This document shows positions 3,746 through 46,665 of a DNA stretch of 54,299 nt, one piece after another. The notes below the pieces were generated by a model. It was not told where the DNA came from, made no database searches, and saw only the letters and a program-made list of their open reading frames with translations. Made by a program: the position numbers and the translations under genes. Positions within the stretch are counted from its first letter, which is position 1; each line of letters starts with the position of its first letter. The DNA is from a virus (Duplodnaviria; Caudoviricetes), in IMG/VR virus record IMGVR_UViG_3300045933_000271, positions 1 to 54,299 of that record. One strand, given 5' to 3'.

Positions 3746-5388
3746 TGGCCCTCCTTGACCGGCAAGGCCGGGCCCCTGAAGGTGAGCTCCATGATCCGAG
3801 CGACTCGCGGGAACTTGCCTTCGTACTCGAGGACGATCTTCTTCGGTTCGTTGATGCCCTTCGTCTGGATCAGGTCGATGGCCTCGTCGATCGTCGCCGG
3901 TGGGGGCAGGGGAGACCGGACCTTCCACCAAGCCTCGGCCTTGTTGCGGGCGAAGCCCTGATGCTGGAGGCAGATGAACTCGGACACCGGCCACATCGCG
4001 CCGATGTGATAGTCGACCCGGAGCGTGGGCGGCTTGCCTTCCGGGTTGTCTTTCTTCTCGTGCTTGGAGTACTCGATGGTGAAAACCTGCTCGGGCCCGG
4101 AGAGGACGTCCTTGTCGGCCGCCTTGCCGTCGTGCTTGACCTCGCGCGGCGCCCGCTCCTTCTTCTCGAACTTCATGCCGCAGTCCGGGCAGATCTCGCA
4201 GCTGTTGGAGACGACCTCCCGGCATGCGGGACATTCCTTGTAGTCGGGCTCGTCGACCTTGGCCGCGGCGCCGCGGCGCGGTGCGCGGATCCGGTCGATC
4301 GGGCCATGGCGCATCAGGTTCCCGCCGAAATCCAGGATCAGGCAGTCCTTCTTGCCCTCGGCCAGGCGGAAGCCGCGGCCCACCATCTGGTAGAAGAGGC
4401 CGGGGGACATGGTGGGCCGGAGGATGGCCACGCAGTCGACGCCCGGGGCGTCGAAGCCCGTGGTCAGCACGTCGACGTTGACCAGGTACTTGAGGCGCCG
4501 TTCGCGGAAGTCGCGGATCGTCCGGGCCCGCTCCTCGTTGGAAGTCAGGCTCTTATCCCCGAAGATGGTCCGGACCTCGACGCCCTCGACGTCGTTGATG
4601 AACTGGGCGATCTGCTGGGCATGCTCGATGCCGGAGGCGAAGACGAGGACGCTCTTGCGGTCCTCGGTCTTTCCGACGATTTCGGAGCAGGCCAGAATGA
4701 CCTGGTCGACGTCGGCGGTCATCGCCGCCTGCAGCTCGCCGGCCACGAACTCCCCGCCGCGGATGGAGACCTTCGACACGTCGGTCTGCTCGATCGCGGT
4801 CTTGGACTTGAGCGGCGAGAGGTAGCCCGCGACGATCAGCTGCTTGACGCCGATCTCGTAGCAGACCGCGTTCAGGAGGTTCTCGGGCAGGCAGATCACG
4901 CCCGACTGCAGTCGGTAGGGGGTCGCGGTCAGCCCGACCAGGCGGACGTTCGGATTGATCTTCTTCACCGCCTCGAGGAAGGTCCGGTACATCCCTTCGC
5001 CGTCGGGCGGGATCCGGTGGGCCTCGTCGATCGCGATGATGTCCACGTGGCCCAGGGCGTCGGCCTTGTTGTAGATGGACTGGATCCCGGCGACCGTGAT
5101 GGGGTAGCCCAGCTCCCTGGCGCCCAGGCCCGCCGAGTAGATCCCCACGCCGATCTCCGGAGCCATCTTCATGATGTTGCCGGCGGTCTGCTCGAGGAGC
5201 TCCTTCACGTGGGCGACGATGGCCATGCGGCCTTCCCAGCCCACGACGTCCTTCGCCATCTGCGCCAGCACGACGCCCTTGCCTGCGCCGGTCGGGAGGA
5301 CGATGCAGGGGTTGTCCTCGCGCGTGCGCACGTGCTTCCACAGCGCCTCGACGGCGTGCCGCTGGTACTCCCTGAGGATCAGTTCCAT
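3739..5388 (-). CDS. SF2 DEAH helicase (RadD/YejH-like) with zinc finger
   Basis: LREYQ, PTGAGKG, IDEAH, GLTATP, VLTTGFD, QMVGRGFR, CPAC..CEICPDC. Confidence 0.95.
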   Translation of the reverse strand: MELILREYQRHAVEALWKHVRTREDNPCIVLPTGAGKGVVLAQMAKDVVGWEGRMAIVAHVKELLEQTAGNIMKMAPEIGVGIYSAGLGARELGYPITVAGIQSIYNKADALGHVDIIAIDEAHRIPPDGEGMYRTFLEAVKKINPNVRLVGLTATPYRLQSGVICLPENLLNAVCYEIGVKQLIVAGYLSPLKSKTAIEQTDVSKVSIRGGEFVAGELQAAMTADVDQVILACSEIVGKTEDRKSVLVFASGIEHAQQIAQFINDVEGVEVRTIFGDKSLTSNEERARTIRDFRERRLKYLVNVDVLTTGFDAPGVDCVAILRPTMSPGLFYQMVGRGFRLAEGKKDCLILDFGGNLMRHGPIDRIRAPRRGAAAKVDEPDYKECPACREVVSNSCEICPDCGMKFEKKERAPREVKHDGKAADKDVLSGPEQVFTIEYSKHEKKDNPEGKPPTLRVDYHIGAMWPVSEFICLQHQGFARNKAEAWWKVRSPLPPPATIDEAIDLIQTKGINEPKKIVLEYEGKFPRVARIMELTFRGPALPVKEGQW

Positions 5389-9048: not shown

Positions 9049-10116
9049 TTGCGTGCCCGGGTTGTACCGCCAGCGGTCTCGCCCGAGATGGAGCGCTGGC
9101 TCTCCCAGCTCGCCAATCGAGGTCTATCCTCGAACACCATCTACGCCTACCGGAAGCGCCTGGACTGGTTTTTTGACTGGCTCCGCGGCACGGGCATGTC
9201 CTTGCTCGAGTTCACCTCCGACGCGATGGAGCAGTGGAAGTCCGACATGCGTGTCGCCCAGAAGCTCTCGATGCAGACGATCAAGGATCGATCCCTCACC
9301 GTAGCCGGCTTGTACGAATGGCTATGGCAGAAGAAGATCGTCTCCGAGCCCATCCACGTTGAGCCCATCAAGGTCCCCAAAAAGATCCCGAGGTATTTGA
9401 CCGAGGACCAGGTCCTGAAGGTGGTCGAGGTCGCGCGTTCGGTGAAGGCGGAGAAGCCCTTCTACCAGACGCGCGACCTCGCCCTCGTTGAGACCTTCTA
9501 TGCAAGCGGCGGCCGACTCTCCGAGGTTCTCAGCATGGACCTCGCCCGGACGAACCTGGACGCGGCCGAGGCGATCATCTCCGCGAAGGGGCAGAAGGAG
9601 CGGCTCCTGCGCCTGACCCCCGCGGCGGTCCGGGCAATCCGCGCCTGGCTTCAGGAACGGGCGGGGAAGCTCGAGGGCATGAAGAAGTCGGGCGAGGACG
9701 CGCTCTGGATCAGCTACTTCGGAAAGCGGCTTTCGGACTCGGGCGTGTGGCTCATCTTCGAGGGCCTCTGGCGCGTGGCGGGCCTGTCGGCGAAGCTCCA
9801 CCCTCACATGCTGAGACACTCGTTCGCCACCCATCTGCTCGAGCGCGGCGCCGACCTCCGTGAGGTTCAGGAACTGCTCGGGCATGGCGACGTCGGGTCG
9901 ACCCAAATCTATACCCATGTGTCCCAGCCCAGGCTGAGGAAGGTCTACCGGCGATCGCACCCGCGGGCGGTGGACAAACCGGTGGAAGAACCGGGGAAAC
10001 CACGCGCGATCGCCGTCACCGTCCACTTCACGGCCGACGAGATCCAGCGTTGCTGCGAGCTCGCTGAGGCTGCGGGGATCCCGCTCGAGGAATGGCTCCG
10101 GGGAAGGGTGCTTTAA
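9049..10116 (+). CDS. XerC/XerD-like tyrosine recombinase (integrase) with C-terminal RHH-like extension
   Basis: SAM-like N-domain (LSSNTIYAY), [50 protein letters not shown]: R-K-H-R-H-Y catalytic set intact. Confidence 0.95.
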
Positions 10117-10513: not shown

Positions 10514-10924
10514 GTGCTCAGGATAGGTCAAAGTTATTGGTTCGGCAGGAACATCAGGCACCTCTACTTCATCGTCTCCGATCCGGATCTTAATCCCGAT
10601 GAAGTGGTCGCCGTCAACATGACGACGATCAATCACGGGGAGAAATACGATTCCTCGTGCGTCCTCCATCCCGGCGATCACGTAGCAGTGACGCGCCCGT
10701 CGTACATCAGCTACTGGAGAATGCAGATTTCCAGCAGATTCAAGATCGAAGACGCAATCGCGATCCGTGTCTTCAGTCAAGACAGGGACCTCCGCCATGA
10801 TGTGCTTAGGATGATTCAAGCAGGGCTGATCAAATCCAAGGACTCAAAGCGCCGGGCGAAGGAGATCCTTATCGACCAGGGCGTGACCGCTGTCGAACTC
10901 GACGCGGCGGAAGAGGAGCTCTAG
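10514..10924 (+). CDS. PemK/MazF-like putative toxin
   Basis: HLYFIVSDP..VVAVNMTT..DSSCVLHPGDHVAVTRPSYISY pattern of MazF-fold proteins; adjacent to a Panacea gene. Confidence 0.65.
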   Translation: MLRIGQSYWFGRNIRHLYFIVSDPDLNPDEVVAVNMTTINHGEKYDSSCVLHPGDHVAVTRPSYISYWRMQISSRFKIEDAIAIRVFSQDRDLRHDVLRMIQAGLIKSKDSKRRAKEILIDQGVTAVELDAAEEEL

Positions 10925-11490
10925 GAGTTGAGGACCGAGCCCAGGAAATAGTCCTCGGCAGCTTCTGCTCGGATCCGATCGATTTGCTCCTCGGACTTGC
11001 CGACTTGCCGGAGAATCTCTTCGACCGGGATCTGAAGTCTTGAGCCGTTGGGATTCTTCCACTCGGGCAGGCCATGGGTTAGCTCGACCAGGTCCCACTT
11101 GCTCATCCCTTCGCACGCGTCGCTGACCTCGTCGAGGAGCGCCGTCTCGGACTCGGAGAGGTTTCCGGCGCCAGGATCGTCTTGGAGGGCAACGTCTACC
11201 TCACTGGTCTTCTTGATGAACCTATCCCAGATCCCGGCCCTGGGCGTGAATGCCCCGCCTTCGCCGGTGATGAGGTTGAGCAGATTACTCAGCACGGGGC
11301 CCTTATTCATGGAGACGTAGAGATCCCCGACGATGGGCCGGCCGTTCGCGCGGAAGCTCTCGCGCTCGGCCAGATAGAGGAGCTTCATCAGGGCCAAATA
11401 GGGCAGCGTACCCTGGCGGCGCTTCAACAGCCAAGCAGCCACCTGGGTGGCCTTGGCCTCGTTGAACCGGTACTTGATCTGATCTTTCAT
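10921..11490 (-). CDS. Panacea-domain (DUF4065/SocA-like) antitoxin
   Basis: FNEAKATQVAAWLL..LMKLLYLAERES..GRPIVGDLYVSMNKGPVLS..LVELTHGLPEWK. Confidence 0.88.
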   Translation of the reverse strand: MKDQIKYRFNEAKATQVAAWLLKRRQGTLPYLALMKLLYLAERESFRANGRPIVGDLYVSMNKGPVLSNLLNLITGEGGAFTPRAGIWDRFIKKTSEVDVALQDDPGAGNLSESETALLDEVSDACEGMSKWDLVELTHGLPEWKNPNGSRLQIPVEEILRQVGKSEEQIDRIRAEAAEDYFLGSVLNS

Positions 11491-12441: not shown

Positions 12442-12654
12442 ATGACGAAGATGTCAACCATGGGACGTGGTGGAAAGCGGCCGGGCGCCGGCCGGCCTAA
12501 AAAGGATCCGGAGGATCGGCTCAAGCTCTTCGGCCTCTACCTCACCGACGAGCAGCGCACGCGGTATCAGGACGCCGCCGGCGCCGAAGGCCAGGACCTC
12601 CAGGACTGGATCCGCCGGCATCTCGACGCCGCGGCCGCGCGAATCCTGAAATGA
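12442..12654 (+). CDS. Small DNA-binding protein (GGxRxGAGRP motif plus ribbon-helix-helix-like)
   Basis: GRGGKRPGAGRPK..FGLYLTDEQRTRYQDAAGAEGQDLQDWIRRHL. Confidence 0.8.
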   Translation: MTKMSTMGRGGKRPGAGRPKKDPEDRLKLFGLYLTDEQRTRYQDAAGAEGQDLQDWIRRHLDAAAARILK

Positions 12655-12692
12655 CATTCATGTTGTATAGTCAATGAACTGAGGATGCGAGT

Positions 12693-13613
12693 ATGACCAT
12701 TTTCGTAAGCGCCCTGGTCCTGATGCTGATGGGTCCCCAGGAGCTCTCCCCCGCCGAGAAGAAGAAGCTATTCGAGCTCCGTCTCGCAGTCGAGAAGAGC
12801 CCCGAGGACGCGGCCGCGAACCTCGCCCTGGGGAAGTTCCTCTGCTTCGTCATTGGAAACTGGAACGAGGGGCTACCCATCTTGGCCAAGGGCGGCGACG
12901 ACCAATTCGCCCACACGGCCAGGCGGGATCTCGAACCGAAGGAGAACGCCCTCTTTTCCATCGAGGTCGCCGACATGTGGCTCCTTCTCGAGGGGAAGAA
13001 CCGGCCGATCGCGGCGCGGATCCGGGAGCGGGTGCTGTTCCACTTCGCCGAGGCCTGGCCGAAGATCTCGGATCCCGTCTGGAAGGACAAGACCCGTGAG
13101 CGTCTTCGGACGCTGCAGCAGAAGGGGCCGGAGTCCAAGACTACGGGGCCCGCGCCGGCAAACTGGTCGGCGGTGAATGCCAGTCTCGGCGGGGATCGTC
13201 AGTATGCGCGGACTGGAGCGACGTCGTTAAAGATCGCACCTCCAGACCCGAGTAAGAAGAACTTCCAGGGTGGACTATGCTCAGAGCTCATGCCGTGCGC
13301 GGCCGGGGCGAAGATCAAGTTCTCCGGTTGGGTGATGACCGGCGGTGCGGACGGGATCGACGAGCTCCGGATCAAACTGCGAAACGCGAAGCAGAGTGGC
13401 GGGGAGCAGCTGGCGATCGTTGCGGTAAAGACGTCGCCCGACCTACCCTACTGGGTGAAAGTCGAGGGCGAGACGACGGCTCCAGAAGGGACCAACAACG
13501 TCGAGATCTCCTTCAAGCGCACACCGAACGCCACGGGCTTCGTCTTCCTAGACGACTTCTCCGTGACCGCGGATGGAAAGGAGCTCCTCAAGAACGGGAG
13601 CTTCGAGAAGTAA
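12693..13613 (+). CDS. Secreted moron: helical domain plus CBM4/9-like galactose-binding fold
   Basis: Signal peptide; AAANLALGKFLCFVIGNWNEGLPILAKG; ARTGATSLKI..FSGWV..WVKVEG..VFLDDFSV..LLKNGSFE. Confidence 0.75.
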   Translation: MTIFVSALVLMLMGPQELSPAEKKKLFELRLAVEKSPEDAAANLALGKFLCFVIGNWNEGLPILAKGGDDQFAHTARRDLEPKENALFSIEVADMWLLLEGKNRPIAARIRERVLFHFAEAWPKISDPVWKDKTRERLRTLQQKGPESKTTGPAPANWSAVNASLGGDRQYARTGATSLKIAPPDPSKKNFQGGLCSELMPCAAGAKIKFSGWVMTGGADGIDELRIKLRNAKQSGGEQLAIVAVKTSPDLPYWVKVEGETTAPEGTNNVEISFKRTPNATGFVFLDDFSVTADGKELLKNGSFEK

Positions 13614-14412
13614 ACCGCGCGGCCGCGAGCTCGGCCGCCGCGACGACCGCCTCTGGGGAGACCTCCATCAGGCACGAGGGGCCGAACTTCCCGGGCTTCG
13701 CGCAATGCTCGCCGCATCCAAGGCACCGTTCCACAGTCCCGAGGGCGGTCGTATTCCAGTAGGCGCGGTTCCTGCCCGGGACGGGCCCGAAGATGACGAC
13801 TTGAGGCGTCCCGACGGCGGCCGCGAGATGGAAGAGCCCGGAATCGTTCCCGAGGTAGAGGGTACAGCGCGCGAGGAGCGCGGCCGTCTCCCGAATCGAG
13901 AGCTTCCCAAGGAAAGATCGGTCGCTGGCGATCGTCCCGCCATCAATTCCCGGGCTCGCCGGATGCTTGCCGACCTCGAGGACCCGCCAGCTGGCTGCTC
14001 GAAGGAGCTCGGAGAGCCGGCGGAAACGGCCGAGAGGCCAACGCCTGGCCTCCTTGCCGGCGTAGGAGTCGATCGCGATCGTCCGGGCCCAATTCTTGAT
14101 TCCGAAGTCGAGCCGGCGCTCGCCTTCGGTGAGGAAGATCTCCGGCGTGTCGTCGACGAGCTCGAGATTCAGTTGCTTGGCGAACTTCCTGGGGAGCGAG
14201 GTCTGGTTGTAGTGCAGGCCGTGACAGACCGAGACGACGCGGCCGGAGTCCATCGCCCCGGAGAGGACGTTGGGGTTCCCCTCAAGGATCTCGGGACGTT
14301 GGAATCCGTCGACGAAAATTCGGTCGTTCGGGCTGAGGCGATGAAGCTCGCGAAGGACCGGGGTCATCGCGACCTCGTCGCCGAGACCGCCCCATTCCAT
14401 CCTGACTTTCAC
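13588..14412 (-). CDS. Glycosyltransferase family 9 (heptosyltransferase-like)
   Basis: GGLGDEVAMTPVLREL, RRWP, LGKLSIRETAALL..YLGNDSGLFHLAAAVGTPQVVIFGP, CLMEVSPEAV; GTGA coupling at 14412. Confidence 0.92.
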   Translation of the reverse strand: MKVRMEWGGLGDEVAMTPVLRELHRLSPNDRIFVDGFQRPEILEGNPNVLSGAMDSGRVVSVCHGLHYNQTSLPRKFAKQLNLELVDDTPEIFLTEGERRLDFGIKNWARTIAIDSYAGKEARRWPLGRFRRLSELLRAASWRVLEVGKHPASPGIDGGTIASDRSFLGKLSIRETAALLARCTLYLGNDSGLFHLAAAVGTPQVVIFGPVPGRNRAYWNTTALGTVERCLGCGEHCAKPGKFGPSCLMEVSPEAVVAAAELAAARFTSRSSRS

Positions 14413-15005
14413 GCGCCCACCCACGGCTTGATGTACACGGCCTGGTTCGCGAAGGCGTGAACGATTTCGAGGCGTCGCTCGTCGATCGCCTGTCGTACTC
14501 CCTTGCAAGTGCTCATCTCGTAGTCGTCGAAGACGATCGCCCCTCCCGGAGAGAGACGCGGGAGAACGTGGTCTAGAAAGGCCCGGCAGCTTTCAAGAAG
14601 ATCGCCGTCGAAGTGGGCGAGCGCGAAAGGACCCTCGAGAGGGTGCTGGGCCATGCCCTCGGGGAACGTCATCGGAACGGGGGTCGCGTTGGGGAAGGGA
14701 CCCACGAGAGTCCGGACCCGATCGATCGACGTCCCACCGAAGTCCCCCGCCTTGTGATGATCGACGTCCGGCTTGGCCTTCGCGGGCATCCCGGCGAATG
14801 TGTCCACACCGTAGACGCGGCGCATGGGGCAAGCGGCCGCCAAAAGGTATAGCGACCCGCCTCGGAAGGTACCGAGCTCGAGAACGTCGCCGGGAACGCC
14901 TGCCGTCACCCCGGCCATGAGCCACAAAGCCCGGCAGCGCTTCTCCGTCAGAAGCGTATGGTGTTGGGCGACGGCGTAGGCTTCGCTGAACGTCGGGGAT
15001 TTCAT
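14409..15005 (-). CDS. TylF/MycF/NovP-like SAM-dependent sugar O-methyltransferase
   Basis: VPGDVLELGTFRGGS, GVDTFAGMP, ALAHFDGDL, LSPGGAIVFDDY..CKGVRQAIDE. Confidence 0.9.
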   Translation of the reverse strand: MKSPTFSEAYAVAQHHTLLTEKRCRALWLMAGVTAGVPGDVLELGTFRGGSLYLLAAACPMRRVYGVDTFAGMPAKAKPDVDHHKAGDFGGTSIDRVRTLVGPFPNATPVPMTFPEGMAQHPLEGPFALAHFDGDLLESCRAFLDHVLPRLSPGGAIVFDDYEMSTCKGVRQAIDERRLEIVHAFANQAVYIKPWVGA

Positions 15006-15095
15006 TCGCGCTCCGAGAAAATAAGGGGGGCCAGAGGCGGCGATCCTCTTACCCCCAGGAGTGACCGCGGCGGATACGCGGTCAGTGGCGAATCT

Positions 15096-15111
15096 CTGTA
15101 GACGTCTGCAC
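15096..15111. promoter_or_regulatory. Candidate parS palindrome copy 2 (14/16)
   Basis: CTGTAGACGTCTGCAC at the end of the lipoprotein gene. Confidence 0.6.
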
Positions 15112-15809
15112 TAAGTCGGCGATGCCGAAGGCGCTGCGGGCGCGGCCGCGGGCGGCGCGGCTGGTAGAATTGCTCCCACCGGCACCCCAAGCTTCTCTTG
15201 AGCCTTGCCGAGAACCTTGTCGATGTACGGTCGTAGGTTGGCGTCCTCGTGGGCTGTCTGAAGGGTGTCCCGGAGCTCGGCGACGACGTCGACGTCGCCG
15301 GAGGCCTTCTTCTTCTGCATGAAGGTCTCGACGGCCGAGATCGTCGTATCGAGCGCGGCGAAGACGGGCCCGAAGCCAGGGACAAACCGGCCGAACTTGC
15401 GCGCGATCCCGAGCGCGACCGCTCCTCCTGTCAGGAGAGCCCCACCGAGCATAGACCAAAAACCGACGTCATGGGAGCCGCCCGACTTCTCCCGGGCCTG
15501 TTTCGCGGCCTCGGCGGAGTAGGGCGTCGGCTCCTTTGGAGGACCCCAATTGCGTTGGAGCTGCTCGCCGTTGGCGAGCGCGTCCTCCGTGAGGGCCTCG
15601 ATCTCCTTCAGTGCCATCAAGGCCCGTGCGGGATCGTTCGTCAAGATCCCGGCCAGGACCTCGAGCTTCGCTTTCTGGAGCCTGGCGATCTGGACCGAAT
15701 GGTCGACGACGACCCGGTCCTCCTCTGTGACCGCGCTCATTCCCGAGCACCCGGCGATCGACATCAACAGCAGCGCCCCCACGAGCGCCCATCCCACTTT
15801 CTTCCCCAT
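15111..15809 (-). CDS. Lipoprotein with internal TM helix (spanin-like topology)
   Basis: AAAGGAG RBS; MGKKVGWALVGALLLMSIAG-C lipobox; helical region; hydrophobic FWSMLGGALLTGGAVALGIA. Confidence 0.75.
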   Translation of the reverse strand: MGKKVGWALVGALLLMSIAGCSGMSAVTEEDRVVVDHSVQIARLQKAKLEVLAGILTNDPARALMALKEIEALTEDALANGEQLQRNWGPPKEPTPYSAEAAKQAREKSGGSHDVGFWSMLGGALLTGGAVALGIARKFGRFVPGFGPVFAALDTTISAVETFMQKKKASGDVDVVAELRDTLQTAHEDANLRPYIDKVLGKAQEKLGVPVGAILPAAPPAAAPAAPSASPT

Positions 15810-15823
15810 CCTGCACTCTCCTT

Positions 15824-16234
15824 TCAATTCCTTGGAAGTCTCTCTCCGAGCTTTCTGGTCGTAGACCGCAGGGATTTGATCGAGTTGGCGAGCTCGTCGG
15901 CCTTCCTCAAGGCCGCCCGCAGCTGGTCTGGCTTGAACGGCTTCTGGAGGATCTCAACGACCAGGGCATCCTCCGGAGCCTCGTGTGCGAAGGCCGATAG
16001 GATGATGACCGGAACGTCGTTCCGCTTGCCGACGAGCGACTCGATCACCCGAGTGCCGTGCCCGTTCGGAAGCCGCAGGTCCAGCACGATCGCCGACAAG
16101 TCGATGATGTCCAGATGCATCAGGGCCTCGCGGACCGTTCCGCAGTCCACGATCCCGTAACCGGCATTCGAGAGGATCAGGCAGATCGCATTCCGGGCCC
16201 GGGGATCGTCTTCTACGACGAGCACGCGCTTCAT
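15824..16234 (-). CDS. Single-domain response regulator receiver (CheY-like)
   Basis: RVLVVEDD, IVLDLRLP (phospho-acceptor Asp52), PVIILSA, LQKPF; ATGA-coupled to the upstream gene. Confidence 0.93.
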   Translation of the reverse strand: MKRVLVVEDDPRARNAICLILSNAGYGIVDCGTVREALMHLDIIDLSAIVLDLRLPNGHGTRVIESLVGKRNDVPVIILSAFAHEAPEDALVVEILQKPFKPDQLRAALRKADELANSIKSLRSTTRKLGERLPRN

Positions 16235-16683
16235 GGTTGCCCTCCTGTCTTCTTCATGGCCTCAGCGATCTTCGGGCCAACCAGGAGCAGGTGATAGAGG
16301 CTCCACCAGATCAACCCCATCACCAGCGTTACGATCGACGGGATCGCGGCCTCGAGCGCCTTCTCGGTCCACTTCTTCCGGCGAGATGTCGTCTCTTTCC
16401 TCTGGAGCTGATCCAAGGCGGCTTTCGCCGTCTGCTGTGCGGTGGCTATCTTGGCCTCCAGGAGCTTGAAGGTCTGATCCCCGGTTTGGAGGCGGCCGTC
16501 CACCTGGCGGCGGGCCTCGGCGATCCACTCGAGATCCTTTTCCAGGGCGGCAATCCTCTCCCGGCTCTGGTCGCCATCTTGACCCTGATCCCTCAGAGTC
16601 CGCTGGATCTCTGCCAGGATTCGCTCCACTCCCTGCAACTGGCCGGAGACCTTGATGATTAGATCCTGAAACTGTCCACCCAT
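16231..16683 (-). CDS. Coiled-coil protein with C-terminal TM helix (holin-like position)
   Basis: Heptad-rich body; AAIPSIVTLVMGLIWWSLYHLLLV; follows tail-fibre genes. Confidence 0.65.
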   Translation of the reverse strand: MGGQFQDLIIKVSGQLQGVERILAEIQRTLRDQGQDGDQSRERIAALEKDLEWIAEARRQVDGRLQTGDQTFKLLEAKIATAQQTAKAALDQLQRKETTSRRKKWTEKALEAAIPSIVTLVMGLIWWSLYHLLLVGPKIAEAMKKTGGQP

Positions 16684-16711
16684 CTTCTCTCCAATCCCCC
16701 GGTCGACTTTG

Positions 16712-16999
16712 TTAGTCCTTCTTCGGCTTCTCGCAATTACCCTTGCGCCTGCGCTGGCATTGGTGGCGGTTGGTCGTCACGCCTAGGGAGCCTTCGCAAG
16801 TACTGCAGAAGAGTTCGGGGTGCGCGCTCTGAAGTGCGAGCGTGACCTCCACGCGGAGGGCGACTTCCTTGACGCCGACTACCAGCAGAGGTTCCTCATT
16901 GATCACGAGGCCTTGGCCAACGATGTACGTCACGGGCACGCTCTCGTCCGAAGTCTCGAAAAGCGTCTTCCCTTCCAGAAGCAAAACAAATGGCTTCAT
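16712..16999 (-). CDS. Hypothetical protein with C-terminal CxxC..HxC
   Basis: GAGGG RBS directly after the tail fibre stop. Confidence 0.6.
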   Translation of the reverse strand: MKPFVLLLEGKTLFETSDESVPVTYIVGQGLVINEEPLLVVGVKEVALRVEVTLALQSAHPELFCSTCEGSLGVTTNRHQCQRRRKGNCEKPKKD

Positions 17000-17008
17000 G
17001 TTCCCTCG

Positions 17009-18355
17009 TTAGGTCGTGTAGTAAATCGCCACGGTATTAACCCAGTGAATCGGCGTGCCGCCGCCGACCCGGTAACCCACGTACCGCATAGTCGTGAAGG
17101 ACGAATCCGTGATATCCACAATGGGCATCCACTGACCGCTCTTGCGCAGAAAGGCTATAAGCGTCCCGGTAGAGTCGTCGTAGTACAGCGCCACCCCCAC
17201 TTCCATAGAGGATGAAGAATTTGCCTGAATCCCTGAATGCGTGTCCGATCCCAAGGAAGTGAAGGACCCGGACGCGCGCTTGAAGATCGCCGTCGTTGTA
17301 CCGCTGATGTTCAGCATGTAGGTGCCGTTCGCCACCTCCGAGGCGGTGGGAGTCGTGTCGGCGACGAAGATGCTGAGGTCGCTGGCGCCGTTCGCGACGT
17401 TCATGTAGGTGATGAACAGGATCTTCGTCTTCGCCGAGCCGATGTCCCAGCCCCAGTTGGCGATGGCCGCGGACGCGTACTTCGCTCGGCTGCGGTTGAC
17501 CGTCAGTGAGCCGCCGTTCAGGTTGGAGAAGTCGCGCGCGGGGTACAGGTACAGGTCCTCGTGGAACGTGGTCGCGGGCATCAGGCTGCGGTCCACGAAA
17601 AACTGCTTCTGCAGCAGGACGTCGGCCGCGCTCATGCCGCTGGGGGTGCCACCAACCAGCGTGCCGCCCACACGCTTGGCGTATTCGCCATCCGCGATGG
17701 CGCCGACCACCAGCTGGGTTGGGCCACTCGTCTCGGTGATGGCCACCACCTTGGGCAGCGCGGCCGTGCCGCCCAGGTCGTTGGCCAGCTTCACCTTCCC
17801 CTTGGTAGAGGCGTCCGCGTCGGACACCCAGCCGTCCACCAGGCCGCTGCCGTCCGCGATCACGATCTTGGATGCTGTAGGCGTGGCCGTGGCGTTGGCC
17901 GGGTCCTCGACGACCTTTGTCCCGCCGTTGAGGGAGGCGTAACCGCTGGCCGCGCCCTTTTCGCTGGTCGCCTGCTTCGCAGCCAGGGCGGCCACCAGGC
18001 CGGTGACGTCCGCCTGGGCGATGGGGAGCGTGGCGACGCCGTCCAGCTCCGTGTTGATGGCGTCCAGCTCGGCCTGGAGGCCGCTGACGTCCGAGATGTC
18101 GATCGGCAGGCCGATCGCCTCTCCGCCTCCGGAGTCCATCTGCCACCGACCCCAGCGGCCACGGACCACAGGATCCTGCCAGGTGGGGAGGAGCCAGTTG
18201 ATTCCGTCATCGGGATCCAAGGAGTGGGGCACGAAGAGCCAGCGGTGCCTGGCCGGCAGCTCGATGACCTCGAAATTACGAACGCTCCCTTGCGGGAACG
18301 ATCGAATCTCATCCAGGTTGTAGGCCAAGGAGATTCGGAGCGGTACCGTTAGCAT
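17009..18355 (-). CDS. Tail fibre / receptor-binding protein
   Basis: ISDVSGLQAELD and QADVTGLVAALAAK repeats, KGAASGYASL, DADASTKGKVKLANDLGGTA fibre motifs; beta-rich lectin-like C-terminus. Confidence 0.8.
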   Translation of the reverse strand: MLTVPLRISLAYNLDEIRSFPQGSVRNFEVIELPARHRWLFVPHSLDPDDGINWLLPTWQDPVVRGRWGRWQMDSGGGEAIGLPIDISDVSGLQAELDAINTELDGVATLPIAQADVTGLVAALAAKQATSEKGAASGYASLNGGTKVVEDPANATATPTASKIVIADGSGLVDGWVSDADASTKGKVKLANDLGGTAALPKVVAITETSGPTQLVVGAIADGEYAKRVGGTLVGGTPSGMSAADVLLQKQFFVDRSLMPATTFHEDLYLYPARDFSNLNGGSLTVNRSRAKYASAAIANWGWDIGSAKTKILFITYMNVANGASDLSIFVADTTPTASEVANGTYMLNISGTTTAIFKRASGSFTSLGSDTHSGIQANSSSSMEVGVALYYDDSTGTLIAFLRKSGQWMPIVDITDSSFTTMRYVGYRVGGGTPIHWVNTVAIYYTT

Positions 18356-23881: not shown

Positions 23882-24619
23882 CTACGCGACCCCCTTCCGC
23901 CAGAAAGCCATGGCATCCAGCGGAGCCCACCTGGGCGGTTCCACCGTCTCAACCGCATTGCGGTCCACGTACCGCCACGTGTTCATTCCATGGCGCACGT
24001 AGATGAAGAGGTTGTGATTCCGGACCGCGACGGCCTTCTCGCCGGCCTCGATCAGGGCGTTGAGGAAGACCACCTTCTGCCCGACCGGGAGGGGCGGATG
24101 CTTGGCGCCGTGACGGAGAACGGAGCGGGCGAAGAGGGAAGTGCCGTCGTGGAACGGTCCCTTCCAGCCGCCGATGGCATTCCCGATCCATGCCGAGATC
24201 GGGCCGCGCTTCTGGAACGGCTTAAACTTGGCGAACCGCGCGCCCGGGACGTAGACCACGTAGTCGCGCGGGATCCCGGTGATGGTCGCCCGATCCTCGG
24301 CGAGGGGCTCCAGCTGGCGCACCAGGCGGCTGGGATGGAACCAGTCGTCATCGTCCACGTAACAGAGCGCGCCGCCCTGTGCCTCGGCCAGTGCCCGATT
24401 GTGCTTCGCGCCCATGTCCTGATCGGGTTCGAGGACGATATGCCTGATGTCCCTGGCCTTGGAGAAGTCCAACCTCAACTCCCGCCGGCTTCCGTCGACC
24501 ACGACGAGCTCCTTGCGCTGCCACGTCTGGGCCCGCCACCACCGAACCGCGTTCTCAAGGAACGCCGGCCGGTTGGCAGTCACGCAGAGCCCCGAGACGA
24601 GGAGGTTGCTCATTCTCAT
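23882..24619 (-). CDS. Glycosyltransferase family 2
   Basis: LVSGLCVTANRPAFL..QTWQRKELVVVDGS..GAKHNRALAEAQG..YVDDDDWFHPSRL..YVRHGMNTW. Confidence 0.9.
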   Translation of the reverse strand: MRMSNLLVSGLCVTANRPAFLENAVRWWRAQTWQRKELVVVDGSRRELRLDFSKARDIRHIVLEPDQDMGAKHNRALAEAQGGALCYVDDDDWFHPSRLVRQLEPLAEDRATITGIPRDYVVYVPGARFAKFKPFQKRGPISAWIGNAIGGWKGPFHDGTSLFARSVLRHGAKHPPLPVGQKVVFLNALIEAGEKAVAVRNHNLFIYVRHGMNTWRYVDRNAVETVEPPRWAPLDAMAFWRKGVA

Positions 24620-27479: not shown

Positions 27480-28958
27480 CTATGCAGTAGGAACTGCCAC
27501 AATCTCGGAGCCGCCGGCGCCCTGGGTCCCGCGGCCGTTGCGCGTGTTCCGCTCGATCCTGGACAGGAACTGGACCGCGATGCGGTTGAGGTCGATGAGC
27601 GGCATGACGCTGCGGGAAATGTCCTCTCCCACGGTCGCGATCGCTACGCTCCCAGGTCCCGCCACGATGCCGCGCATCGCTTGTGAGGACTCGACGATCG
27701 ACTGGACTCCCGTGAAGGACTCCGTGGATATGTTTCCCCGTCGCGACAACAGCGCGCCGCCGATGCCGAGCGCCGCGGTCAGCGCGCCACCGATCAGATC
27801 GCTCCCGCCGGAGATCGCCTTGAAGGCCGCGGCAAGGCCGGTCTGAACCTGCTTCATCGCCTCCGAGATCGCGTTCTCGAACAGCGACTGCCCGGCGTTC
27901 GCCAGGATCTCCATCGGCTTTTCACCGCTAAGGATCCCGCGCTCGATCGCAGAGCCGAACGACGTCGAGAAGGAGTCGGCCAGTCCTTCGAGCCTCTTCT
28001 GGGCGTCCACCTTGCCCTGCGCCGACTTCGTCTTGTCGATTGCCAGCCCGAGCGCCGTCGGGTCGGTATTGGGATCCTTCAGAAGCGCGTCCAACTCCCG
28101 GCGAGCGGCTTGCGCTTCGATCTGAATGGCCTCGAGGGGCGAGATCAGCCCCGCCTGGAGCTGGATCGCCGTTCCCTGGAGAAGCTTGGCATTTTCCTCC
28201 GCGAGCACCGCGCGATCCTTGACCCCTTCGGCGCGAAGAAGGTCCCGCAGCTTCGCGCGGGCGAGTGTGATTGCCTGTTCATCATCCCGAATATTCACGC
28301 CCGCAAGTTCGTCCGATATTTCACCGCGCCCGAGCTTCGTCCGTGTGTCTGCCTGAGCTGACAGCCTCCTACGAATCTCGTCTTCCAGCTCTTGCCGCTG
28401 GCGAGCGATGATGGAAAGATCCCGCTGATTTCCAGTCTGGGTACGACCAATGAATGCGAGGTCCACCCCAAGATCTCGGTGAGCCTGAGCCACCTGGGCC
28501 ATCGCTTGGCCGAACTCTTTCGCAGCCTCAACCCCCTTGGGGGCCGTCTCGATGAATTTGAGGATTCCCGCCGTCAGTCCCGCCACGGCTCCAATCGCGA
28601 TTCCGATCGGGTGCGGGATCGCCAGCGCGATGGCAGCGAATGCCGAAAGCCCCGTCGACGCCGCGGTAACACCCTTACTCTGGCCGTCGCCGGCGAAGGA
28701 CTGGAAGGCCCCCTGCGCGGCAAACATGACTCCGGTGAGGCGAGCGATACGGGCGGTGAGTTGAATTGACTTCTTATCGATCGCAGTGAAGGTGTTGGAA
28801 ATCCGCTGGCCGCTTGTCTGAACGCTTTTGGCCGTGGCGTCCACGCGGGTACCGAAGCTGGTCATCTCCCCCTTGGCCGCCTGGACGTTCTTCTTCAGGT
28901 CCTGATATTGGGCCTTGAGTTCGACCAGGACGGAGCCGGCATTGAATTCACCGGCCAT
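27480..28958 (-). CDS. Tape measure protein (short, 492 aa)
   Basis: AGSVLVELKAQYQDLKKNVQAAK N-terminus; Ala/Gly-rich helical with hydrophobic segments; follows tail chaperones. Confidence 0.85.
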   Translation of the reverse strand: MAGEFNAGSVLVELKAQYQDLKKNVQAAKGEMTSFGTRVDATAKSVQTSGQRISNTFTAIDKKSIQLTARIARLTGVMFAAQGAFQSFAGDGQSKGVTAASTGLSAFAAIALAIPHPIGIAIGAVAGLTAGILKFIETAPKGVEAAKEFGQAMAQVAQAHRDLGVDLAFIGRTQTGNQRDLSIIARQRQELEDEIRRRLSAQADTRTKLGRGEISDELAGVNIRDDEQAITLARAKLRDLLRAEGVKDRAVLAEENAKLLQGTAIQLQAGLISPLEAIQIEAQAARRELDALLKDPNTDPTALGLAIDKTKSAQGKVDAQKRLEGLADSFSTSFGSAIERGILSGEKPMEILANAGQSLFENAISEAMKQVQTGLAAAFKAISGGSDLIGGALTAALGIGGALLSRRGNISTESFTGVQSIVESSQAMRGIVAGPGSVAIATVGEDISRSVMPLIDLNRIAVQFLSRIERNTRNGRGTQGAGGSEIVAVPTA

Positions 28959-29013
28959 GGCGCACCGTGTTCAAAACGGGGTATACTTTCCCTGCGTTCG
29001 AAGGAGAATCCAG

Positions 29014-29397
29014 ATGGCGAAGCTGGGATGGATCGTTGCGGCGCTCGCCGCGCTTCTCGTCACAGGAGCCGCCTACACGTCGGCTCCGGTCGACGACTCC
29101 AAGAAGCTCGACGAGATCAAGGCGCTGCTCGAGGAAAGCAACCGCCTGCAGCGCATAGACGTTCACCCAAGGCGCTACAAGGCTCACGCACTTTACACGC
29201 AGTGCGATTTCGGAAAGACCTGCGATGCCCTGGAGTCCCGAGCCAACAGACACGACTTGGACTTCGACGTTTTGAAGCCGCATCATTCGTTTGTCCCGGA
29301 ATGCATGGACAAGGCTGCCTGCAAAGAGCAGGAGGTCCAATACCAGCGTCGAAACGCGGAATTGGAAGAGTTTCTTAAGAAGTCCAAGGGCAAGTAG
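29014..29397 (+). CDS. Secreted or membrane-anchored moron on the opposite strand
   Basis: TATACT -10 at 28982, AAGGAG RBS, MAKLGWIVAALAALLVTGAA signal, four Cys. Confidence 0.75.
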   Translation: MAKLGWIVAALAALLVTGAAYTSAPVDDSKKLDEIKALLEESNRLQRIDVHPRRYKAHALYTQCDFGKTCDALESRANRHDLDFDVLKPHHSFVPECMDKAACKEQEVQYQRRNAELEEFLKKSKGK

Positions 29398-33328: not shown

Positions 33329-34357
33329 CTACGCGGGGATCACCTGGGCCGTGACGATCGCGCGCGTGACCTTCATCACCGGCAGGCGCCGGTAGCGGCG
33401 GTAGAGCACGATCTTGGGCGGGTTGTCCTCGTGCTTCGACCACGCCCCGGCGCCCTGGACCAGCTGCATCTTGCCGGAGCTGTTCAGCACCGCGACGGTG
33501 CCTCGGGCGAACTCGCCCCAGCTGCGGTCGGCGGCCGGCAGGAACACGACCTTCCCGGCGGGGATGTGGTAGGTCCGGTTGCCCGTCACCGGGTGCTTGT
33601 AGTAGTGCAGGACCTCGACCCACGTCATCCCGTAGAGATTCGGGATCTCTCCGGAGCCCGCCATGCGCTCCGCGGTGGGGGTGCCGTTGATCAGGTCGCG
33701 CGTGGGCTCGTTGCCGAAGAGGGCGGACTTGACGCCGGGGCCCATGAGGGCGATACCCAGCTCTCGGCCCGCTTCCTCCCGGGGAACCTTGCGGATCGCC
33801 TCCACGTCCACGTCGATCTTCGCGGCCCCGTTCGCCCACGAGAGCGGGATGGTGCCGTTGCCGCCGCCGCCGCCGATCTTGAAGTGGTTGGCGGCGTTGA
33901 ACTTGTAGTCGATCGTGTGGAGGAGGTTCTTGATCTTGACGCTGATGCTGCCCTGGATCGCCTGGGAGAGCAGCATCTCGTCCTGGCGCGCGTGGCGCTG
34001 GGACAGGCGGTTCATCTTCTCCGCCACCTTGTTCTCGATCGTCTCCGCGCCGTCGGAGCCCGCGCGGCGGATCTGGATGACCTCTTCGCCGTCGAAGCTG
34101 TCCTCGTCGAAGCTGGTGATCAGCTTCGCCGAGCGGTTGCCGAGGACCTCCTCGTCCATGACGTTGGCCGGGTCGTTGTCGCCCGTGAAGGCGCCCACGT
34201 CCTCGAGCTCCGTCTTCTCATCCCACTGGTAGCTCTTGCCGTCGATGGGCTTCGACGCCAGGATGCCCCGGTTCAGGAGGGGCGTGCCGACGCTCTTGTA
34301 CTTCTGCACGAGTTCCGTCAGGGTCTCCTGCCGGAAGATTTCCATGTCCTTGCTCAT
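33329..34357 (-). CDS. Major capsid protein (lambda gpE-like, HK97 fold)
   Basis: 342 aa; RQDEMLLSQAIQG..IDY..SWAN..YHIPAGKVVF..RRLPV; follows protease and decoration genes. Confidence 0.88.
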   Translation of the reverse strand: MSKDMEIFRQETLTELVQKYKSVGTPLLNRGILASKPIDGKSYQWDEKTELEDVGAFTGDNDPANVMDEEVLGNRSAKLITSFDEDSFDGEEVIQIRRAGSDGAETIENKVAEKMNRLSQRHARQDEMLLSQAIQGSISVKIKNLLHTIDYKFNAANHFKIGGGGGNGTIPLSWANGAAKIDVDVEAIRKVPREEAGRELGIALMGPGVKSALFGNEPTRDLINGTPTAERMAGSGEIPNLYGMTWVEVLHYYKHPVTGNRTYHIPAGKVVFLPAADRSWGEFARGTVAVLNSSGKMQLVQGAGAWSKHEDNPPKIVLYRRYRRLPVMKVTRAIVTAQVIPA

Positions 34358-39820: not shown

Positions 39821-41329
39821 CTATTCCTCGCTCGTGGCTCCGATGCGCGCGAGGTCCTCCTGGACCTGCTTTTCCATCTCGGGGGTGACCTTGACGCCGC
39901 CCTCTCCGCCGGCGATCGCCGCGGCCTTGGCGTCCCGCTCCTCGCGCTCCTGATCCCACTCCTCCTGCGCCTCGTCGAGGGGGCGCAGCTGCATCTCCAG
40001 GTCGTCGGCCATGCCGATCGCGTCGAGGCGCTTCCGGAGGGGAACGGACTCGCCTTCCGCCAGGGTGGCCTCGGCGTCCATGATCTTGAGGAGGACCTCT
40101 TTGTAGAGCTGCTGCTTGCCGGGCGAGAGGCCCCAGGCCTTGATGAAGGTCTTTGACTCCTCGAGGGCACGGCGGCCTTTGTTGAACAGGATCACGCGGT
40201 CGACGACGGGCTGCAGGATCCTGGACACGAACTCGCCGACCCGGGACTGCTGGATCTCGCCCAGGCGGTTCTCGTGGACCTCCGCTCGCGCGCGGGATCC
40301 CTGCGGCTCCGACGTGGCCGACTCGCCCGGGATGAGCCCGCACTTCAGGATCCGGACGCCCTCGGCGTCGATCGCCTGCTGGAACATGTCCCCGCGCTTG
40401 TCGTCGGTGAGGTACTGGATCTCGTTGTGGCGGTTGCCCTTCTCGTCGCGCTTCCCGGAGAGGACCACGTAGGAACGGCTCTTCAGCGCCGCGAGGGCCT
40501 TCCGCATGAGCTCTGTCGCGTCGATGGGCTTGTTGTCCTTGTCCATCGCGGTGCCGTTGGTGGCGTAGCCGATAGGCGTCGGGTGAGCCCGCCCCTCGAA
40601 GTAGGTGTTGCGCAGGAAGATCAGCCCCGACTGGTCGTACCACGGGGTGTAGGCGGAATCGTAGATGCCCAGGCCGGTCAGGCGGCCCCACTCATCCTCG
40701 ACCCGGTGGGTCCACAGGAGGAGCTCGGAGGCGTCCACCGTGACCGACTTCCCATCGGTGCGGTCCTGCGTGACGGACGAGAACTCGTCGGTCTTCTCGT
40801 CCGAGTGGAGCGTGATCGTGCGCGGATCGATGCCCTTCACGCGCTTGATGGACCAGGCCGCCGGCAGCGTGATCGAATCGGTCTGCCCCTTGGCCTTGTC
40901 CTCTAGGTCGAACGAGAAAGGACCGGATTGCCAGATGGGCTGCTGGACCTGGAAGCCGTAGAGCGGAGAGAGCGAAGCCGACCTGGAAAGCTCCGGAAAG
41001 ATCGGTCGGACCATCGCGTCCACGAGAGCGGCGAGCTGCGGATCCCTGCTCTCGATCGTCCACCGCATGTTGACGATTGGCGAGCGGACGAGCGCCGACA
41101 TGAAGTCGACGTCGGGCGAGTAGCGCATCATGATCTTGCGCGTGATGCCGACCGAGTGCGGCTTGAACTCGCCGATGATCTTCGTGACGTAGGGCGGGAA
41201 CTCGTGGCTCCCGTAGTGGGCCTGAAGTTCCATGTCGGATTCAGGCGTTGGACGGTCCCCGTCGGCCGCCAGCTGGATCCGATTGAACATGCTGCCGACC
41301 ATGGACAGGGCGCGGTTGAGGAGCATCAT
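39821..41329 (-). CDS. Portal protein (DUF935 / Mu gp29-like)
   Basis: YGFQVQQPIW, IDPRTI, WGRLTGLGIYDSAYTPWY..YFEGRAHPTPIG, GSRARAEVH; ATGA-coupled to terL. Confidence 0.88.
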   Translation of the reverse strand: MMLLNRALSMVGSMFNRIQLAADGDRPTPESDMELQAHYGSHEFPPYVTKIIGEFKPHSVGITRKIMMRYSPDVDFMSALVRSPIVNMRWTIESRDPQLAALVDAMVRPIFPELSRSASLSPLYGFQVQQPIWQSGPFSFDLEDKAKGQTDSITLPAAWSIKRVKGIDPRTITLHSDEKTDEFSSVTQDRTDGKSVTVDASELLLWTHRVEDEWGRLTGLGIYDSAYTPWYDQSGLIFLRNTYFEGRAHPTPIGYATNGTAMDKDNKPIDATELMRKALAALKSRSYVVLSGKRDEKGNRHNEIQYLTDDKRGDMFQQAIDAEGVRILKCGLIPGESATSEPQGSRARAEVHENRLGEIQQSRVGEFVSRILQPVVDRVILFNKGRRALEESKTFIKAWGLSPGKQQLYKEVLLKIMDAEATLAEGESVPLRKRLDAIGMADDLEMQLRPLDEAQEEWDQEREERDAKAAAIAGGEGGVKVTPEMEKQVQEDLARIGATSEE

Positions 41330-44905: not shown

Positions 44906-45091
44906 TCACCTCAAATGCGATCCATGCTTCGTCAGGTACCAGGAGAGCACCGCCATGCCGGCGATCACGAGCGCGATCAGGAGCGACAGGCCCAGGATCG
45001 TCCGCCACCGCTCCTGCCGGCGGATCGCCTCGGGGATGTCTTCCAGGAAGGCCTCGTCGTCGCCGTCGTCGGGTTTCCATTCGGGGCTCAT
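44906..45091 (-). CDS. Small single-TM protein
   Basis: ILGLSLLIALVIAGMAVLSWYL; ATGA-coupled. Confidence 0.7.
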   Translation of the reverse strand: MSPEWKPDDGDDEAFLEDIPEAIRRQERWRTILGLSLLIALVIAGMAVLSWYLTKHGSHLR

Positions 45092-46219: not shown

Positions 46220-46342
46220 CTACTTGAACTCGTCGCACCCGCACTTCTGGCAGCCCACGAGCGGCAGGTGGTACATCACCGAATGCCCGCAGTTGTCGCA
46301 GTCGCCGATCAGCCACTTCCACAACTTGCCAAGCGTCTTCAT
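46220..46342 (-). CDS. 40-aa zinc-binding peptide
   Basis: CDNCGH..H..CQKCGC; GAGGAG RBS; ATGA-coupled. Confidence 0.65.
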   Translation of the reverse strand: MKTLGKLWKWLIGDCDNCGHSVMYHLPLVGCQKCGCDEFK

Positions 46343-46665
46343 GGCCGTCTCCTCACTCGATTCACCCGATGCACCACGACCGTCACGCGCATGTCGTCGT
46401 ACGGCTCCACCCAACCCTTGCCCCTGCAGCGCCAGCAGCTGGACGGGCAGTGGTCCCACTCGACGCCGCTCCACTCCGGGCAGACCTGGAAGAGCTCCGG
46501 CTCGCACCAGCAGTCCAGGTTGTCGACCTGGTGCTCGGCGGGCGGCCGGTAGTAGCGCTGCTCCTGGGGCTCGGGCTGTGAACGGCGGCGTGCGAGGGAC
46601 CGGATCATGAGAGCCACGATGGCCGCGAGCAGGAGGAGCTGGACTGCCGCGAGGTAGTGATTCAT
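46339..46665 (-). CDS. Membrane-anchored Cys/His-rich protein
   Basis: N-terminal TM; H..DCWCEP..CWRCRGKG..VVVH. Confidence 0.7.
   Translation of the reverse strand: MNHYLAAVQLLLLAAIVALMIRSLARRRSQPEPQEQRYYRPPAEHQVDNLDCWCEPELFQVCPEWSGVEWDHCPSSCWRCRGKGWVEPYDDMRVTVVVHRVNRVRRRP

Follow-up and report, generated by a model that had tools for sequence, protein, structure and literature searches.

The stretch of DNA analysed here (the window) is the whole of IMG/VR record IMGVR_UViG_3300045933_000271, a linear tailed-virus genome of 54,299 bp and ~65% G+C that CheckV rates 100% complete, and our subject is a gene for a stand-alone receiver (REC) domain that lies where its late genes end. Scans of 60 open reading frames (ORFs) against Pfam and PHROGs reveal a temperate siphovirus-like gene layout, with the late genes on the minus strand. 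Past the last fibre gene, this strand continues with a 95-residue ORF, a gene for a coiled-coil membrane protein (hereafter the partner), the receiver gene and a gene for a putative lipoprotein, all co-directional with the late operon and packed against it (gaps of 9 and 28 nucleotides, nt). A gap of 105 nt then precedes a TylF-like methyltransferase gene, which is followed by a GT9 glycosyltransferase gene. The original prediction, made from the sequence, had described the receiver as an orphan, phosphorylatable protein wired into a putative lysis cassette, with a holin-like gene upstream and a spanin-like gene downstream.

Table 1 Features of the receiver locus and of the surrounding phage genome
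Feature	Position	Strand	Remarks
Stand-alone receiver (REC) gene, 136 residues	15824..16234	-	Pocket E8, D9, D10, D52, S80, K98-P99
E8-D9-D10 codons	16205-16213	-	Read from sequence
D52 codon (GAC), predicted phospho-acceptor Asp	16079..16081	-	Invariant in 31/31 family sequences
Partner gene, 150 residues: coiled coil and C-terminal membrane helix	16231..16683	-	Conserved across loci; XhlA-like tail-anchored architecture
Partner family motif, residues 53-72, W.AEARRQVDGRLQTGDQTF	16468..16527	-	Best conserved stretch of the family
Predicted membrane helix of the partner, residues about 113-135	16279..16347	-	Hydropathy
Translational-coupling junction	16231..16245	-	GGAGGG at 16240-16245, 5-nt spacer, ATGA
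Downstream gene, 232 residues, lipoprotein with membrane helix	15111..15809	-	Lipobox IAGC (Cys21), helix about 117-139
Spacer from receiver stop to lipoprotein ATG, 14 nt	15810..15823	-	Contains AAGGAG
Terminase large subunit	41326-42894		
Portal	about 39821-41122		
Major capsid protein	33329-34357		
Tail and fibre genes	extend down to 17009		Last fibre gene 17009-18355
Integrase	9049-10116		

The receiver matches the Pfam family Response_reg (PF00072) over profile positions 1-111 of 111, with an expectation value (E) of 3.1e-16 and 59.9 bits against a cut-off of 30.2, and PHROG 731 at 8e-17; a six-frame search of the record with Response_reg returned the same single place. The full catalytic set that had been read from the sequence is present residue for residue. 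A profile built from the receiver family finds the PhoB receiver best (9.3e-18), with the pocket residues in register (PhoB E9, D10 and D53) and a four-residue deletion at the expected position of helix alpha4. An AlphaFold2 (AF2) model (predicted local distance difference test, pLDDT, 84.4) places strands at residues 3-7, 27-31, 46-52, 76-80 and 92-97 in an alternating strand-helix layout; in this model alpha4 is cut to residues 83-85 and alpha5 forms one long helix of 31 residues (102-132). Searching the PDB with the model by Foldseek gave at least 500 matches at E <= 0.001, nearly all of them receiver domains among the matches listed, and the top template modelling (TM) scores went to receivers solved with a long alpha5 linker: HupR (0.84), DctD (0.82) and NtrC1 (0.81). 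The receiver pocket thus looks intact and phosphorylatable.

A word-indexed search of 5.8 billion proteins gave 592 candidates and 127 hits at E <= 1e-5. Besides the window protein, 28 hits range from 2e-66 to 6.5e-21 and one lies at 1.4e-13, with generic regulators starting from 7.8e-9. The top 30 hits are 100-169 residues long and carry the receiver domain with, at most, an overlapping FleQ receiver model. About 30 receiver-only proteins, the window receiver among them, make up a compact and rare clade, and a maximum-likelihood tree puts 29 family rows on one side of a branch, against the 44 nearest regulators, with support of 97/83. The regulators in this tree are P0031-P0074, cut to their first 135 residues; P0075-P0120, the L002 row and P0029, which is truncated, were left out. 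One clade member comes from a Planctomycetota metagenome-assembled genome (MAG) by its NCBI label, which is the sole host hint, and the host is probably a diderm of this group. A single-sequence scan of viral contigs with the receiver gave no match, and a scan of species-representative genomes returned one generic receiver of 38% identity only, in a Spirochaetota MAG, with no prophage copy of the clade seen.

Conservation within the clade centres on the pocket. Across a 31-sequence alignment spanning 34-82% identity to the window protein, E8, D52, L55-P56-N57-G58-H59-G60, R71, D73 and P75 are invariant, conservation is 90% or more at D9, D10, K98 and P99, and every row has Ser or Thr at position 80; D9 is replaced by Gly in three of the 31 rows, in all of which D10 is kept. 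By these patterns the pocket is under selection. Outside it, family-specific conservation peaks on alpha2 (ALMHLD), in the loop between strand 3 and alpha3, in the turn between alpha3 and strand 4 (KR.DVPV) and at the C-terminus (IKS.R.STRRL), with alpha1, the usual kinase-docking helix of receivers, being variable. At the switch position three residues before K98, the window protein has I95 and the family I, V or A; an aromatic residue, which on strand 5 is common in receivers and not defining, is not present. Six members (P0013, P0015, P0017-P0019 and L019:576-1073) carry an insertion of 14-35 residues directly before the conserved Lys-Pro, and in P0017-P0019 and L019 it holds two Cys-x-x-Cys pairs in a zinc-ribbon-like arrangement.

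The degenerate alpha4, the missing aromatic switch residue and the Cys-rich insertion before Lys-Pro in some members could be explained if the receiver fold were a constitutive structural subunit of a membrane complex, in which phosphorylation plays no regulatory part. We consider this very improbable, as the acidic pair, D52, S/T80 and K98 are kept clade-wide at 34-82% identity, which is hard to explain without phospho-chemistry.

We next turned to the genes around clade members. Loci were gathered by three scans, using the lipoprotein, the receiver alignment (against viral and metagenome contigs) and the partner alignment. Eleven distinct loci were retained: the window, L002, L018, L019, L020, L021, L022, L023, L024, L026 and L034, with L024 and L025 counted as one and five weak partial matches (L028-L032, of 15 metagenome loci) left out. 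The survey, which the original prediction had proposed as a check, revealed conserved synteny: a homologue of the partner lies immediately upstream of the clade receiver in 11/11 loci, the L026 partner being cut by the contig end and that of L021 being recognised by alignment, not by tblastn. The refuting condition of the original prediction, a lack of conserved synteny, thus does not hold. In every locus with enough upstream sequence, the module comes directly after the tail fibres. Three further receiver/partner pairs come from contigs of equal length, and one pair carries consecutive NCBI accessions, which suggests that there are more adjacent pairs beyond these 11 loci.

The two genes are also joined at the level of translation. 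In the window, the TGA stop of the partner (16231-16233) overlaps the ATG of the receiver (16232-16234), bearing out the ATGA coupling that had been noted, and stop and start overlap at 10/11 junctions (ATGA in five, GTGA in two, TTGA in one, TAATG in two), with a 4-nt spacer at the remaining one. The codons for the conserved C-terminal Gly-Gly of the partner fall within a purine-rich, Shine-Dalgarno-like (GGAGG-like) stretch before the receiver start, as do their equivalents in L002, L018-L026 and L034; the C-terminus of the partner may therefore be conserved partly for the ribosome-binding site. Over 10 loci (the truncated L026 was left out), receiver and partner pairwise identities correlate (r 0.53; Mantel p about 0.002), which indicates co-inheritance of the two genes and does not by itself establish contact between their products.

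Five related phage records, including the window, were then compared; four are rated complete and two have terminal repeats. By six-frame search the receiver is present in 3/5 and absent from 2/5, both of them complete. The partner profile is strong in the same three records (E 1e-35 to 3e-49), and in the receiver-less records it found nothing in one and a 15.7-bit C-terminal match (E 3.3e-4) in the other. At the equivalent position, the receiver-less phages encode a 107-109-residue coiled-coil membrane protein that is devoid of the partner motif (hhalign probability 5% against the partner), and the lipoprotein gene follows directly with nothing between. Because one family is constant upstream of the receiver in 11/11 loci, we take the upstream protein to be its conserved partner, and it is very probable that the two proteins form one functional unit. 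In a 240-residue protein of a different family, encoded at 4647-5369 of the 90-kb viral contig L013, a coiled-coil-like N-terminal region is fused to a receiver domain, so that a single chain again combines the two elements.

The partner is as rare as the receiver. A word-based search with the protein found 2 proteins only, and a profile search of 1.84 billion representatives found 49 at E <= 0.001, 35 of these at <= 1e-10. Most members listed are 115-174 residues long and share an N-terminal coiled coil, the motif (consensus W.GEERR.V..RL.TGD(H/Q)TF), a basic stretch, one hydrophobic helix and a short tail. Lys and Arg residues are more frequent on the N-terminal side of the helix, so that by the positive-inside rule the large domain of the partner is predicted to be cytoplasmic, within reach of the receiver. 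Comparison with Pfam, PHROGs and PDB profiles gave no significant family, only coiled-coil noise, for the partner and for the downstream proteins alike. Architecturally, the partner is of the XhlA type, with an N-terminal coiled coil, a single C-terminal membrane helix and a place in a post-tail cassette, and an Atlas feature search ranked an XhlA-family cluster second (0.92; 179/256 features shared), a lead only; 43% of the members of that cluster carry PF10779. Pfam XhlA (PF10779) itself scored 0/11 partner members above its cut-off and one sub-threshold at E 0.0011, with no hit for the window protein. Holins are small membrane proteins, encoded next to an endolysin, that permeabilise the membrane when expressed; the partner is small and has one membrane helix, and no endolysin was detected beside it or elsewhere in the window.

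We also considered the partner as a histidine phosphotransfer (Hpt/DHp-like) protein. The His of its TGD-H-TF motif is His in 29/52 sequences, Gln in 10/52 (the window included) and another residue in 13/52; a phosphotransfer role is thus unlikely, and in the lack of an invariant His this candidate was rejected. A Pfam scan likewise gave no HisKA or Hpt match in partner members among the 25 of 33 families listed.

A source of phosphate was sought within the phage itself. HATPase_c and HisKA gave no match at E <= 0.1 in a six-frame search of the whole record, the positive controls matching in 14/14 and 12/14 genomes, and HATPase_c was found in none of the five phage records; the earlier statement that the genome encodes no kinase agrees with this. 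Since the pocket is kept clade-wide and the phage has no kinase of its own, we think it fairly probable that a host donor phosphorylates the receiver at D52.

The intact pocket and the missing phage kinase would equally suit a decoy, or phosphate sink, that drains or blocks host two-component signalling and to which the neighbouring genes are irrelevant. The original prediction had offered such a sink as its second option, and phage proteins that interfere with host two-component systems have been published (PMC10714779). This explanation nevertheless leaves the 11/11 adjacency and the overlapping translation with one rare membrane-protein family unaccounted for, and it does not sit well with family conservation that is strongest on alpha2, alpha3 and the C-terminal helix and not on alpha1; we therefore regard it as improbable.

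Downstream of the receiver the loci differ. The 232-residue lipoprotein follows it in 3/11 loci (the window, L002 and L018) and is also present in the two receiver-less relatives. In five loci (L020, L021, L022, L024 and L026), a 101-109-residue protein with two hydrophobic helices and a basic tail takes this place, followed by a small lipoprotein of 82 residues in L020 and L024, and by a 117-residue helical protein and a glycosyltransferase in L020, L022 and L024. L034 has a 220-residue multi-helix protein with an internal lipobox, L023 a soluble protein of 133 residues, and the L019 contig ends. With genes of four types found downstream, the fixed partner of the receiver is not to be sought there. 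Among the viral look-alike clusters of the two-helix protein (about 100 residues), two carry the Phage_holin_5 family on 11-13% of their members, which we treat as a lead only.

The lipoprotein family is small, with 8 proteins found, and the Gly-Cys of its lipobox is invariant in 11/11 sequences; the window protein has no PHROG or Pfam match. Its AF2 model is all-helical and poor (pLDDT 59.7), and at this low confidence suggests a helical periplasmic part, a mid-protein membrane helix and a cytoplasmic tail of roughly 90 residues. Lipobox and membrane helix are features of a unimolecular spanin (u-spanin), yet about 90 residues are predicted to be cytoplasmic beyond the helix. The receiver had been thought to occupy the slot where an endolysin usually sits. 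This is unsupported, because the two receiver-less relatives close that slot completely, keeping membrane protein and lipoprotein with nothing between, and no endolysin was detected in the group.

What stands of the proposed lysis cassette is its setting, with the receiver tightly tied to genes for membrane proteins where the late operon ends. That its neighbours are a holin and a spanin is not confirmed: both names come from architecture only, Pfam and PHROGs having revealed no lysis family in the window, and a role in lysis is unproven. Lysis leads as a reading through the post-fibre position, the late-operon packing, the small envelope proteins, the XhlA- and holin-like architectures and the fact that this is the sole membrane-gene cluster, there being no other in the window. 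Two small single-helix membrane proteins, of 61 residues (44906-45091, minus strand) and of 108 residues and Cys-rich (46339-46665, minus strand), are encoded in the early/middle region and are alternative holin candidates.

Taken together, the analysis suggests that the phage reads the phosphorylation state of its host to control a membrane step, possibly lysis. We propose, as a tentative reading that we hold at somewhat short of even confidence, that the receiver is a phosphorylation-switched regulator of a tail-anchored, XhlA-like membrane protein and thereby controls a membrane-acting late function, most likely lysis timing. In this scheme the receiver would be the soluble, phosphorylation-switchable subunit of a two-gene module, and the partner a tail-anchored protein whose coiled-coil domain of ~110 residues faces the cytoplasm. 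Coupled translation would yield the two proteins together, from genes that close the late (tail-fibre) operon beside those for other small envelope proteins. The phosphate on D52 would come from a host histidine kinase or from a small donor, for instance acetyl phosphate, and its phosphorylation state would change the binding of the receiver to the partner through the conserved alpha2/alpha3 face and the long alpha5. The altered binding would determine whether the partner acts on the membrane and at what time, the likeliest action being an XhlA-like holin or holin-accessory activity that ties lysis timing to host physiology. We infer that receiver and partner bind physically, where the phosphate comes from, how the partner is oriented in the membrane and that the pair has a role in lysis and, as in the original prediction, that host phosphorylation could time lysis. 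A more specific version, doubtful in our view, is that in these uncultivated, probably Planctomycetota-infecting siphoviruses the host-charged receiver restrains the XhlA-like protein and releases it when the phosphorylation potential of the host changes.

Several observations weigh against a phosphorylation-switched lysis regulator. With the aromatic switch missing (I95) and alpha4 nearly absent, the output mechanism would not be a textbook one. Plain co-inheritance would likewise produce the adjacency, the coupling and the correlated divergence, and the XhlA likeness of the partner reaches no curated threshold. Pfam and PHROGs revealed no holin, endolysin or spanin family among the window ORFs scanned, including in an endolysin search of the unannotated ORFs at Pfam E <= 0.05 and PHROGs E <= 0.1. 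Phage_lysozyme, Amidase_2, SLT and Peptidase_M15_4, the lysin families searched in six frames, were each found in 0/5 records (the window and its four relatives); with no endolysin family detected, the putative lysis cassette is one without a recognised enzyme. Moreover, the module lies between the tail fibres and the integrase, where accessory (moron) genes gather, and a methyltransferase and a glycosyltransferase follow it.

This location raises an explanation other than lysis, namely that the pair is an accessory module with a role in the lysogen or at an early stage of infection, perhaps as a membrane-anchored signalling or exclusion device or by regulating how the envelope or glycans are modified. 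In two lineages the cassette is followed by glycosyltransferases, as GT9 with the TylF-like methyltransferase in the window and as a GT1/GT4-like gene in L020, L022 and L024; no lytic enzyme was detected, and two complete relatives manage without the receiver. A single-domain regulator of Myxococcus has also been reported to activate a membrane glycosyltransferase (PMC12802240). We nonetheless consider an accessory module unlikely. The genes are co-directional and packed with the late operon, and no sigma-70-like promoter match was found in 12600-17200, in a promoter/terminator scan that gave little information. The post-fibre position is kept across divergent phages and the glycosyltransferases are not, the operons of L002 and L018 ending at the lipoprotein. 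The receiver-less relatives, for their part, keep a coiled-coil membrane protein and the lipoprotein in place, which looks like non-orthologous replacement within an essential function.

Receiver-only proteins that act by protein-protein contact are well known among the single-domain response regulators, such as CheY, DivK, CpdR and Spo0F. The phage protein resembles them in being receiver-only, with an intact Asp pocket and no output domain. It differs in being phage-encoded with no cognate kinase, in forming its own clade, in its nearly absent alpha4, 31-residue alpha5 and missing aromatic switch, and in being translationally coupled to a tail-anchored membrane protein. One such regulator, EpsW of Myxococcus, is reported to act on a membrane enzyme (PMC12802240).

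For the cassette, the closest comparison is XhlA-XhlB-XlyA of Bacillus subtilis PBSX, in which xhlA encodes a membrane protein predicted to act with the holin XhlB, all three genes being reported as needed (PMC5589764). In both, a small protein with a coiled coil and a C-terminal helix heads a post-tail cassette, and in five of our loci a two-helix, holin-like protein follows. Unlike PBSX, there is no significant sequence match, a receiver stands between two membrane-protein genes, no amidase or endolysin was found and the host is probably diderm. Two-component phosphorylation has been tied to holin-like membrane proteins before: in staphylococci, LytSR controls the holin-/antiholin-like LrgAB/CidAB, and acetyl phosphate can replace the kinase (PMC4830213). 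LytSR and the phage pair are alike in that link. LytR, however, is a DNA-binding, transcriptional regulator, whereas the phage receiver has neither a DNA-binding domain nor a kinase, and its control would be post-translational, by contact.

Phage antiholins, such as T4 RI and lambda S107, are small proteins that set lysis timing by acting on the holin, and the unimolecular spanin gp11 of T1 combines an N-terminal lipoprotein anchor with an inner-membrane helix. The 232-residue downstream protein is similar in having a predicted lipoprotein anchor and membrane helix. None of these proteins is known to use a receiver or phosphorylation, and the 232-residue protein differs in the helical periplasmic part and roughly 90-residue cytoplasmic tail of its low-confidence model.

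Receivers of other phages (PHROG 731 and 5982, and the cREC of jumbo phages) stand apart, none belonging to the clade of the window receiver. In INPHARED, 44 records match the receiver at under 35% identity, some of them being bacterial contigs, and ten other IMG/VR loci (L008-L017) match it at <= 34%; in eight of these ten an ORF covers the match, three being receiver-only and four encoding full-length regulators or longer proteins. Jumbo phages have a divergent cREC, which has been tied to NAD/ADP-ribose systems and described as never part of two-component signalling (PMC7824862). In a literature search that left most subscription journals outside, we found no account of a receiver-only phage gene that is paired with one for a membrane protein or lies in a lysis cassette.

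Contact-acting receiver-only regulators, XhlA-type accessory proteins, transcriptional two-component control of holin-like genes and other phage receivers are thus already known. What appears new, on comparison of the sequences, is a receiver clade with a fixed, translationally coupled and equally rare membrane-protein partner. Lysis timing as known rests on holin accumulation, antiholins and membrane potential. If the restraint-and-release version proposed above is true, lysis timing would be a direct read-out of host physiology and the pair would embody a post-translational, two-component-derived antiholin principle; we know of none described for any phage. Phage receiver domains are mostly unexplained passengers, and here the partner and the switch residue D52 are defined, with receiver-less relatives as natural controls. 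The pair makes it testable whether a phage times its action on the cell envelope by host phosphorylation. The finding also flags a group of complete phage genomes with no endolysin detected.

To look for transcription of the cassette, soil metatranscriptomes were queried, and one run contained 5% of the words sampled from the phage. Only two contig pieces are exact, 14474-14662 and 14869-15111, covering the methyltransferase gene and the spacer before it; the remaining four are partial matches of 25-38 nt, and no piece falls on the receiver cassette. Contigs this few and shallow do not allow the cassette to be called either expressed or silent. The piece 14869-15111 ends at the stop codon of the lipoprotein gene. 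That the methyltransferase is transcribed separately is at best a hint.

The genes that follow the cassette encode a TylF-like O-methyltransferase (14409-15005, minus strand) and a GT9 heptosyltransferase-like protein (13588-14508, minus strand), both missing from L002 and L018, and a GT2 glycosyltransferase gene lies inside the tail-gene block (23882-24616, minus strand). The products of these three genes may modify virion or host glycans. Convergent to the cassette, and beside the integrase in three phages, is a gene for a secreted protein with a weak CBM_4_9-like C-terminal half (window 12693-13613, plus strand; L002 7212-8168; L018 3144-4061), at about 50% identity between them. Also near the integrase, a SocA/Panacea-domain antitoxin-like protein (10921-11490, minus strand; Pfam E 6.5e-24) adjoins a 136-residue PHROG 19071 protein (10514-10924, plus strand), and the two may be a toxin-antitoxin pair.

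Elsewhere, the phage encodes replication genes, RuvC, ParB and a sigma-70-type factor. This 447-residue protein of the sigma-70 family (52859-54202, minus strand) has regions 2 and 4 and matches PHROG 351 at 2e-58. Within the tail module, between the tape-measure-like and tail genes, a 160-residue ORF with a signal-anchor-like helix lies on the opposite strand (28915-29397, plus strand).

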